Assembly (NCBI RefSeq): GCF_050920415.1
Contig: NZ_CP169309.1
DNA: 64,000 nucleotides
From: Escherichia coli
Lineage (GTDB): Bacteria; Pseudomonadota; Gammaproteobacteria; Enterobacterales; Enterobacteriaceae
Direction: 5' to 3' (one strand)
Shown here piece by piece: positions 15,312 to 59,285 of this stretch; the stretch's first letter is position 1, and each line of letters begins with the position of its first letter. The notes under the pieces were generated by a model. The model saw only the letters and a program-made list of their open reading frames with translations, was not told the DNA's origin and did not search any database. Both the position numbers and the translations under genes were made by a program.

Positions 15312-15530
15312 TGCTACTGCAGGATGGCGTTCATGCGCCATCCTCTGCTAAAACGAAATAATGCTACTACCGGTTATTCTTTTCATTAACGGGTGCATCC
15401 TGTAAAAAGATGCCAACATAATTTTCGTAAAACTCATTCGTTAAAAAAGCTAACGCTGGGCATTGTTATTCTTTAAACAGTATGAATATGCCTCAATAAT
15501 AAATTGTAATGCAGTTTATACTGTAAAGTA

Positions 15531-24716: not shown

Positions 24717-27344
24717 ATGAGCGACCTTGCGAGAGAAATTACACCGGTCAACATTGAGGAAGAGCTGAAGAGCTCCTATCTGGATTATGCGATGTCGGTC
24801 ATTGTTGGCCGTGCGCTGCCGGATGTCCGAGATGGCCTGAAGCCGGTACACCGTCGCGTACTTTACGCCATGAACGTACTAGGCAATGACTGGAACAAAG
24901 CCTATAAAAAATCTGCCCGTGTCGTTGGTGACGTAATCGGTAAATACCATCCCCATGGTGACTCGGCGGTTTATGACACGATCGTCCGTATGGCGCAGCC
25001 ATTCTCGCTGCGTTACATGCTGGTAGACGGTCAGGGTAACTTCGGTTCCATCGACGGCGACTCTGCGGCGGCAATGCGTTATACGGAAATCCGTCTGGCG
25101 AAAATTGCCCATGAACTGATGGCCGATCTCGAAAAAGAGACGGTCGATTTCGTTGATAACTATGACGGCACGGAAAAAATTCCGGACGTCATGCCGACCA
25201 AAATTCCTAACCTGCTGGTGAACGGTTCTTCCGGTATCGCCGTAGGTATGGCAACCAACATCCCGCCACACAACCTGACGGAAGTCATCAACGGTTGTCT
25301 GGCGTATATCGATGATGAAGACATCAGCATTGAAGGGCTGATGGAACACATCCCGGGGCCGGACTTCCCGACGGCGGCAATCATTAACGGTCGTCGCGGT
25401 ATCGAAGAAGCTTACCGTACCGGTCGCGGCAAGGTATATATCCGCGCCCGTGCGGAAGTGGAAGTTGACGCCAAAACCGGGCGTGAAACCATTATCGTCC
25501 ACGAAATTCCGTATCAGGTGAACAAAGCGCGCCTGATCGAAAAAATTGCGGAACTGGTAAAAGAAAAACGCGTGGAAGGCATCAGCGCGCTGCGTGACGA
25601 GTCTGACAAAGACGGTATGCGCATCGTGATTGAAGTCAAACGCGATGCGGTCGGTGAAGTGGTGCTCAACAACCTCTACTCCCAGACCCAGTTGCAGGTT
25701 TCTTTCGGTATCAACATGGTGGCATTGCACCATGGTCAGCCGAAGATCATGAACCTGAAAGACATCATCGCTGCGTTTGTTCGTCACCGCCGTGAAGTGG
25801 TGACCCGTCGTACTATTTTCGAACTGCGTAAAGCTCGCGATCGTGCTCATATCCTTGAAGCATTAGCCGTGGCGCTGGCGAACATCGACCCGATCATCGA
25901 ACTGATCCGTCATGCGCCGACGCCTGCAGAAGCGAAAACGGCGCTGGTTGCTAATCCGTGGCAGCTGGGCAACGTTGCCGCGATGCTGGAACGTGCGGGC
26001 GATGATGCTGCGCGTCCGGAATGGCTGGAGCCAGAGTTCGGCGTGCGTGACGGTCTGTACTACCTGACCGAACAGCAAGCTCAGGCAATTCTGGATCTGC
26101 GTCTGCAGAAACTGACCGGCCTTGAGCACGAAAAACTGCTCGATGAATACAAAGAGCTGCTGGATCAGATCGCGGAACTGTTGCGTATTCTTGGTAGCGC
26201 CGATCGTCTGATGGAAGTGATCCGCGAAGAGCTGGAGCTGGTTCGTGAACAGTTCGGTGACAAACGTCGTACTGAAATCACCGCCAACAGCGCAGACATC
26301 AACCTGGAAGATCTGATTACTCAGGAAGATGTGGTAGTGACGCTCTCTCACCAGGGCTACGTGAAGTACCAGCCGCTTTCTGAATACGAAGCGCAGCGTC
26401 GTGGCGGGAAAGGTAAATCTGCCGCACGTATTAAAGAAGAAGACTTTATTGACCGACTGCTGGTGGCGAACACCCACGACCATATTCTGTGCTTCTCCAG
26501 CCGTGGTCGCGTCTATTCGATGAAAGTCTATCAGTTGCCGGAAGCCACTCGTGGCGCGCGCGGTCGTCCGATCGTCAACCTGCTGCCGCTGGAGCAGGAC
26601 GAACGTATCACCGCGATCCTGCCGGTGACTGAGTTTGAAGAAGGTGTGAAAGTCTTCATGGCGACCGCTAACGGTACTGTGAAGAAAACCGTCCTCACCG
26701 AGTTCAACCGTCTGCGTACCGCTGGTAAAGTGGCGATCAAACTGGTTGACGGCGATGAGCTGATCGGCGTTGACCTGACCAGCGGCGAAGACGAAGTAAT
26801 GCTGTTCTCCGCTGAAGGTAAAGTGGTGCGCTTTAAAGAGTCTTCTGTCCGTGCGATGGGCTGCAACACCACCGGTGTTCGCGGTATTCGCTTAGGTGAA
26901 GGCGATAAAGTCGTCTCTCTGATCGTACCGCGTGGCGATGGCGCAATTCTCACCGCAACGCAAAACGGTTACGGTAAACGTACTGCGGTAGCGGAATACC
27001 CGACTAAGTCGCGTGCGACGAAAGGGGTTATCTCCATCAAGGTTACCGAACGTAACGGTTTAGTGGTTGGCGCGGTGCAGGTAGATGACTGCGACCAGAT
27101 CATGATGATCACCGATGCCGGTACGCTGGTACGTACTCGCGTTTCTGAAATCAGCATCGTGGGCCGTAACACCCAGGGCGTGATCCTTATCCGTACTGCG
27201 GAAGATGAAAACGTGGTGGGTCTGCAACGTGTTGCTGAACCGGTTGACGAGGAAGATCTGGATACCATCGACGGCAGTGCTGCGGAAGGGGACGATGAAA
27301 TCGCTCCGGAAGTGGACGTTGACGACGAGCCAGAAGAAGAATAA
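24717..27344 (+). CDS. gyrA: DNA gyrase subunit A
   Basis: 875-aa ORF; catalytic Tyr region ([10 protein letters not shown]), QRDR ([11 protein letters not shown]) and acidic C-terminal tail. Confidence 0.97.
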
Positions 27345-27362
27345 TTTCATCGCCTCATGCCA

Positions 27363-27386
27363 AAAGGGAGTTATCTCCCTTTTTTG
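27363..27386 (+). terminator. Rho-independent terminator after gyrA
   Basis: aaagggagttatctccc followed by TTTTTT: GC stem, short loop and T-run 18 nt after the gyrA stop. Confidence 0.7.
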
Positions 27387-27484
27387 AATTGAAGTCCAGG
27401 CTGCAAAGTCTGGGCTTTTGTCGTATTAGGGCGCGGTAAAGTTTTGCTGTACCCATAAAAAATGGCTGGCTTTACACAAGGAAT

Positions 27485-34337
<6,853 letters not shown>

Positions 34338-47108: not shown

Positions 47109-47306
<198 letters not shown>

Positions 47307-50948: not shown

Positions 50949-51051
50949 AAGAAGGGTAAAAAAAAACCGGATGCGAGGCATCCGGTTGAAATAGGGGTAA
51001 ACAGACATTCAGAAATGAATGACGGTAATAAATAAAGTTAATGATGATAGC
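50949..51051 (-). ncRNA. micF: MicF antisense sRNA (represses ompF translation)
   Basis: Minus strand reads GCTATCATCATTAACTTTATTTATTACCGTCATTCATTTCTGAATGTCTGTTTACCCCTATTTCAACCGGATGCCTCGCATCCGG followed by a T-run, matching my recollection of micF with its terminator hairpin; divergent from ompC. Confidence 0.85.
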
Positions 51052-51370
51052 GGGAGATATTCTAGTTGCGAGTGAAGGTTTTGTTTTGACATTCAGTGCT
51101 GTCAAATACTTAAGAATAAGTTATTGATTTTAACCTTGAATTATTATTGCTTGATGTTAGGTGCTTATTTCGCCATTCCGCAATAATCTTAAAAAGTTCC
51201 CTTGTATTTACATTCTGAAACATCTATAGCGATAAATGAAACATCTTAAAAGTTTTAGTATCATATTCGTGTTGGATTATTCTGCATTTTTGGGGAGAAT
51301 GGACTTGCCGACTGATTAATGAGGGTTAATCAGTATGCAGTGGCATAAAAAAGCAAATAAAGGCATATAA

Positions 51371-59029: not shown

Positions 59030-59285
59030 ATGTGCCACATCCGGCATGTTATGCCGGATGTGGCGTATGCTGATAAGACGCGCCAGCGTCGCATCAGTCA
59101 ACCGGCTTGGGCGTTAGATGTCGGATGCGGCGTGACCGCCTTATCCGACCTACGGGGTGGAGCACTTCACAGCGGTGTAGGCCTGATAAGACGCGCCAGC
59201 GTCGCATCAGGCAACCGGCTCGGGCGTTGGATGTCGGATGCGGCGTGACCGCCTTATCCGACCTACGGGGTGCCGCACTTCACGG
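59030..59285. repeat. REP/BIME cluster between convergent mqo and eco
   Basis: Two tandem units about 120 bp apart (…gatgcggcgtgaccgccttatccgacctacggggtg…) plus flanking gccggatg / catccggc palindromes. Confidence 0.8.

Follow-up and report, generated by a model that had tools for sequence, protein, structure and literature searches.

Wild-type codons 83 and 87 in the gyrA gene of an Escherichia coli chromosomal segment

Introduction

DNA gyrase derives its DNA breakage-reunion domain from the A subunit, GyrA, and it is at the DNA-cleavage site of the enzyme that the fluoroquinolones bind and trap the cleavage complex. On the basis of structural work on the type IIA topoisomerases, Ser 83 and Asp 87, both located in helix α-4, anchor the drug via a water-Mg2+ bridge. 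The substitutions S83L and D87N/G/Y weaken drug binding and represent the usual first step to resistance. ParC, which is the A subunit of topoisomerase IV, contains a homologous N-terminal breakage-reunion domain, and in this protein the equivalents of the gyrA resistance positions are Ser 80 and Glu 84. The feature that distinguishes GyrA from ParC is the C-terminal β-pinwheel with its GyrA box.

Ser 83 and Asp 87 were described by Huseby et al. (PMC5400412) as the key gyrA resistance residues, and the initial resistance event is usually a gyrA mutation at one of these two positions. According to the same report (PMC5400412), the increase in ciprofloxacin MIC that results from a single gyrA mutation is 10-20 fold greater than that from a mutation in parC, acrR, or marR, and the genotype that dominates in the clinic combines gyrA S83L D87N with parC S80I. 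The ciprofloxacin MIC of the wild type implied therein is about 0.016 mg/L. The limits of the quinolone-resistance-determining region (QRDR) employed here, namely codons 67 to 106, are those of Yoshida et al. 1990 as they are cited in PMC5400412.

Described in this report is the gyrA gene contained in a stretch of E. coli DNA 64,000 nucleotides in length, which is hereafter referred to as the window.

Results

Identity of the gene

The only long plus-strand open reading frame in this part of the window encodes a protein of 875 residues. Relevant coordinates are provided in Table 1. An in-frame TAG at 24714-24716 lies immediately 5' of the ATG, and thus the gyrA frame cannot reach further upstream. 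The encoded protein matches TIGR01063, the NCBIfam gyrA equivalog, over its full length with a score of 1310 bits versus a cut-off of 877, and it likewise exceeds the cut-off of a second equivalog, NF004043 (1258.6 bits versus 902). Residues 1 to 875 of the full-length E. coli GyrA chains in PDB entries 6rks (chain A) and 8qdx pair with residues 1 to 875 of the window protein, and the GyrA C-terminal domain of PDB entry 1zi0 is matched by residues 535 to 841. The GyrA box, QRRGGKG, is found in the translation. Codon 122 specifies a tyrosine, the catalytic residue of E. coli GyrA that links covalently to DNA.

The genes are ordered as a remnant of yfaL, ubiG (minus strand), gyrA (plus strand), yfaA, and yfaT. 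This is the arrangement observed in K-12, on the opposite strand, and in NZ_CP169399.1, and the placement of gyrA between ubiG and yfaA corresponds to its orthologous position in the E. coli chromosome. Of 5,426 complete E. coli genomes, only one lacks a full-length match annotated as gyrA. Every testable defining feature of GyrA is displayed by the window gene.

Table 1. Coordinates of gyrA, its presumed signals, and neighboring features in the window.
Feature	Position	Strand	Basis or remark
gyrA coding sequence (DNA gyrase subunit A, 875 aa + stop)	24717..27344	+	ORF, TIGR01063, K-12 b2231 identity
TGTTATAAT, presumed extended -10 of the gyrA promoter	24664..24672	+	sequence reading, K-12 identity
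QRDR, codons 67-106	24915..25034	+	amino acids same as K-12
Codon 122 (TAT), catalytic Tyr 122, context AAMRYTEIR	25080..25082	+	sequence reading, K-12 identity
Hairpin AAAAGGGAG-UUAU-CUCCCUUUU followed by U run, likely terminator	27362..27385	+	fold: -13 kcal/mol, z = -2.5 versus shuffles
Antisense ORF, 323 aa	24879..25850	-	mechanical ORF list
Antisense ORF, 206 aa	25863..26483	-	mechanical ORF list
Antisense ORF, 140 aa	26531..26953	-	mechanical ORF list
yfaL/ehaC N-terminal remnant, 327 aa	22621..23604		ORF, Chlam_PMP repeats
yfaL deletion region	22621-23848		junction about 23494-23711
Segment between glpQ and inaA, 1.7 kb	15344-17058		no K-12 counterpart
ORF in the 1.7-kb segment, 367 aa	15531..16637	-	no Pfam match
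yfaS, 1,539 aa	29718-34337	+	MG2, A2M_BRD, A2M, and bMG10 domains

Codons 83 and 87

Because the open reading frame begins at 24717, codon n starts at 24717 + 3(n - 1), so that codon 83 occupies 24963-24965 and codon 87 occupies 24975-24977. A previous sequence-only reading of this DNA had assigned these codons as TCG (Ser) and GAC (Asp), respectively, and both direct inspection and a script return the same triplets, which are also the codons of K-12. The sequence in this region reads cat ccc cat ggt gac TCG gcg gtt tat GAC acg atc, and the motif harboring the two codons spans GyrA residues 78 to 88. Given that Ser 83 and Asp 87 are both present, the S83L and D87N/G/Y substitutions are absent from the window gyrA, in agreement with that reading. 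The assignment had been made dependent upon the codon numbering of the reference protein, and the E. coli numbering fits without offset: residues 1 to 875 align on residues 1 to 875 with no insertions or deletions. A chance match for the motif is ruled out by the TIGR01063 score, the identity to the K-12 protein, and the alignment with 6rks.

Comparison with K-12 MG1655 and other strains

A comparison of the window protein with GyrA from K-12 MG1655 (b2231, NP_416734.1) reveals identity at 875 of 875 residues, with the same start, the same TCG and GAC codons at positions 83 and 87, and the same neighbors, ubiG and yfaA. At the DNA level, the two genes are equal in length without insertions or deletions and differ at 59 nucleotides (97.75% identity). 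All 59 differences are synonymous, 58 of them in the third position of a codon and one in the first. Three of these silent changes lie in the QRDR (gene positions 255, 273, and 300). The K-12 residue is observed at positions 51, 67, 81, 82, 83, 84, 87, 106, 119, and 196 (Ala 51, Ala 67, Gly 81, Asp 82, Ala 84, Gln 106, Ala 119, and Ala 196 included). Indeed, since the entire 875-residue protein is that of K-12, all other reported gyrA resistance positions are wild type. The resistant alleles S83L and S83L plus D87N are forms of this gene and are set in the same sequence surroundings, but their codon 83 is TTG and, in the double mutant, codon 87 is AAC; neither change is found in the window gyrA.

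The window as a whole is collinear with K-12 from 2,299,682 to 2,365,196, that is, from napG to ais, at 94.5-97% identity. Closer relatives are E. coli MFDS1022581 (NZ_CP169399.1) and N96 (NZ_CM169999.1), in which the gyrA DNA is 100% identical over 2,628 bp. NZ_CP169399.1 and the window share 99.98% identity, as measured over 41 kb of flanking DNA, the exception being an IS2 insertion in glpQ of NZ_CP169399.1 that is missing from the window.

As a DNA allele, this gyrA is uncommon: exact copies occur in only two of the 5,425 complete genomes compared, and copies with 99% identity or more in 51 of them, which suggests an uncommon lineage.

Frequency of codon 83/87 genotypes

The genotypes at codons 83 and 87 were counted by megablast in a sample of 5,426 complete E. 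coli genomes. The queries were 41 nucleotides in length, such that bases 24964-24978, which take in all bases from position 2 of codon 83 to the end of codon 87, lie inside every possible 28-nucleotide seed. Any mismatch in 24964-24978 abolishes the match, and the genotype classes are therefore mutually exclusive. The counts below are descriptive, and are not population frequencies, inasmuch as clinical and resistant isolates are over-represented among complete genomes. The wild-type core accounts for 2,694 genomes, or 49.6% (2,051 with GTT and 643 with GTC at Val 85), S83L plus D87N for 1,703, or 31.4% (1,372 GTT and 331 GTC), and S83L alone for 487, or 9.0% (415 GTT and 72 GTC). The remaining genomes, about 542 (about 10%) by subtraction, have some other combination or a silent variant. 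No other genotype among the 5,426 genomes is as common as the wild-type 83/87 core.

One full-length gyrA match, with the S83L plus D87N core, comes from a record that bears a plasmid label; mislabelling or misassembly of that replicon could be the cause.

Presumed promoter element and terminator

The 146-nucleotide intergenic region between ubiG and gyrA is identical to that of K-12 at 145 positions, and TGTTATAAT is retained. The sole difference is an A-to-T change located 21-23 nucleotides 5' of the TATAAT hexamer (24667-24672), which would not be expected to affect the expression of gyrA or ubiG. On the basis of the known K-12 promoter, we take TGTTATAAT to be the -10 element of the gyrA promoter. 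Its location was established by visual inspection and by comparison with the identical K-12 sequence. Both the gyrA promoter and its terminator escaped a generic consensus promoter and terminator scan of 24500-27600. The scan requires a -35 match, and TGTTATAAT was missed because the promoter is of the extended -10 type without a good -35 element. Downstream of the coding region, a hairpin located by eye and by folding, AAAAGGGAG-UUAU-CUCCCUUUU, is followed by a run of U residues, and together these likely function as the intrinsic terminator of gyrA.

Neighboring loci

Next to ubiG, the gene for the yfaL/ehaC autotransporter adhesin is reduced to an N-terminal remnant. The responsible deletion removes ∼2.8 kb (K-12 2343296..2340493), which is replaced by about 217 bp. 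It is common to the window, NZ_CP169399.1, and NZ_CM169999.1. The junction sequence is found whole in only five of 5,426 complete E. coli genomes and as such is a rare lineage marker.

Between glpQ and inaA, at the site of the yfaH pseudogene, there is a 1.7-kb segment for which K-12 has no counterpart. No Pfam match was obtained for its 367-residue open reading frame, and in the closest genome the segment is annotated as a frameshifted hypothetical protein and a LysR fragment. The yfaS gene of the window encodes an intact bacterial α-2-macroglobulin, whereas that of K-12 (b4500) is annotated as a pseudogene.

Rfam matches comprise the MicF sRNA upstream of ompC together with naRNA4/REP-type elements, the sites being 50959-51052 (minus strand), 47221-47297, and 59068-59263. 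One naRNA4/REP-type element is positioned between rcsC and rcsB, and a tandem pair is located near eco/mqo, where K-12 has several copies of a 224-bp repeat.

Discussion

The best explanation for these results, and one that is held with near certainty, is that the window gene is the chromosomal E. coli gyrA encoding the gyrase A subunit in its reference, quinolone-susceptible form. No feature of the sequence speaks against this reading. If the numbering were shifted, or if the gene were the paralog parC, the codons referred to as 83 and 87 would not be the resistance sites. ParC shares its fold with GyrA and contains a similar motif, and the window protein does score significantly against the ParC model TIGR01062. 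That score of 580 bits, however, falls short of the cut-off of 629, and the ParC equivalogs as a group remain under their own cut-offs, whereas the GyrA equivalogs are well over theirs. The protein also differs from ParC in having the GyrA box and the length of GyrA, and the synteny with ubiG and yfaA is that of K-12. Both versions of this alternative are ruled out by the family models, the identity to K-12 GyrA without a single insertion or deletion, and the end-to-end alignment with the PDB chains, and the probability that is left to them is negligible. A different question is posed by the three antisense open reading frames in gyrA, which appear in the mechanical list with lengths of 140 to 323 residues. 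That any of them is a real gene is very improbable, if slightly less so than a misidentified gyrA. They lie wholly opposite a strongly conserved gene and are unannotated in both K-12 and NZ_CP169399.1, and their translations are of low complexity and rich in Arg, Phe, Val, and His, as is to be expected when a gene with biased codon usage is read on its complementary strand. Codon bias probably accounts for the open reading frames within 24879-26953 on the minus strand, which would then be artefacts.

What a wild-type gyrA rules out is resistance mediated by gyrA itself and nothing more, and the source strain could still be less susceptible to fluoroquinolones as a consequence of plasmid genes, efflux up-regulation through marR, acrR, or soxR, or changes in gyrB, parC, or parE. 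Within the window there are K-12-syntenic chromosomal genes only. None of parC, parE, gyrB, marR, acrR, soxR, or the plasmid-borne qnr, aac(6')-Ib-cr, qepA, and oqxAB is found in its 64 kb, and these loci are thus unobserved. Because topoisomerase genes other than gyrA, the efflux regulators, and the plasmid-borne genes lie outside of the window, the susceptibility of the strain is not deducible from it. No sign of a resistance gene was found in the non-K-12 DNA of the window, the only extra segment being that between glpQ and inaA. Mutations in efflux regulators are known to lower susceptibility as well (PMC5400412). Against this stands the fact that the first resistance step in E. coli is normally a gyrA mutation, and that clinical-level resistance demands several changes, usually including gyrA S83L (PMC5400412). 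For these reasons, only a low-level loss of susceptibility is plausible with a fully wild-type GyrA, and high-level fluoroquinolone resistance in the source strain is unlikely. Reduced susceptibility through a non-gyrA route is itself considered unlikely, albeit with a small chance of being correct. A slightly smaller chance is assigned to the proposal that the gyrA DNA allele, being rare, is the signature of an uncommon lineage of E. coli, one that may have lower quinolone susceptibility by such routes, and even if true, this would still amount to no new biology. Determinants positioned outside of the window limit the implications of a wild-type, reference-form gyrA but do not contradict it.

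There is nothing novel about the window gyrA, a known gene in the state described in textbooks. Its wild-type condition is unsurprising, given that about half of the complete E. coli RefSeq genomes share the wild-type core. The value of the result is that of routine genotype-to-phenotype annotation, which is uninformative beyond strain typing. Because the protein is identical to the characterized, susceptible GyrA of K-12, the encoded gyrase should, judging from its sequence, be fully as drug-sensitive as the reference enzyme, and gyrA would then add nothing to any quinolone resistance of the source strain.
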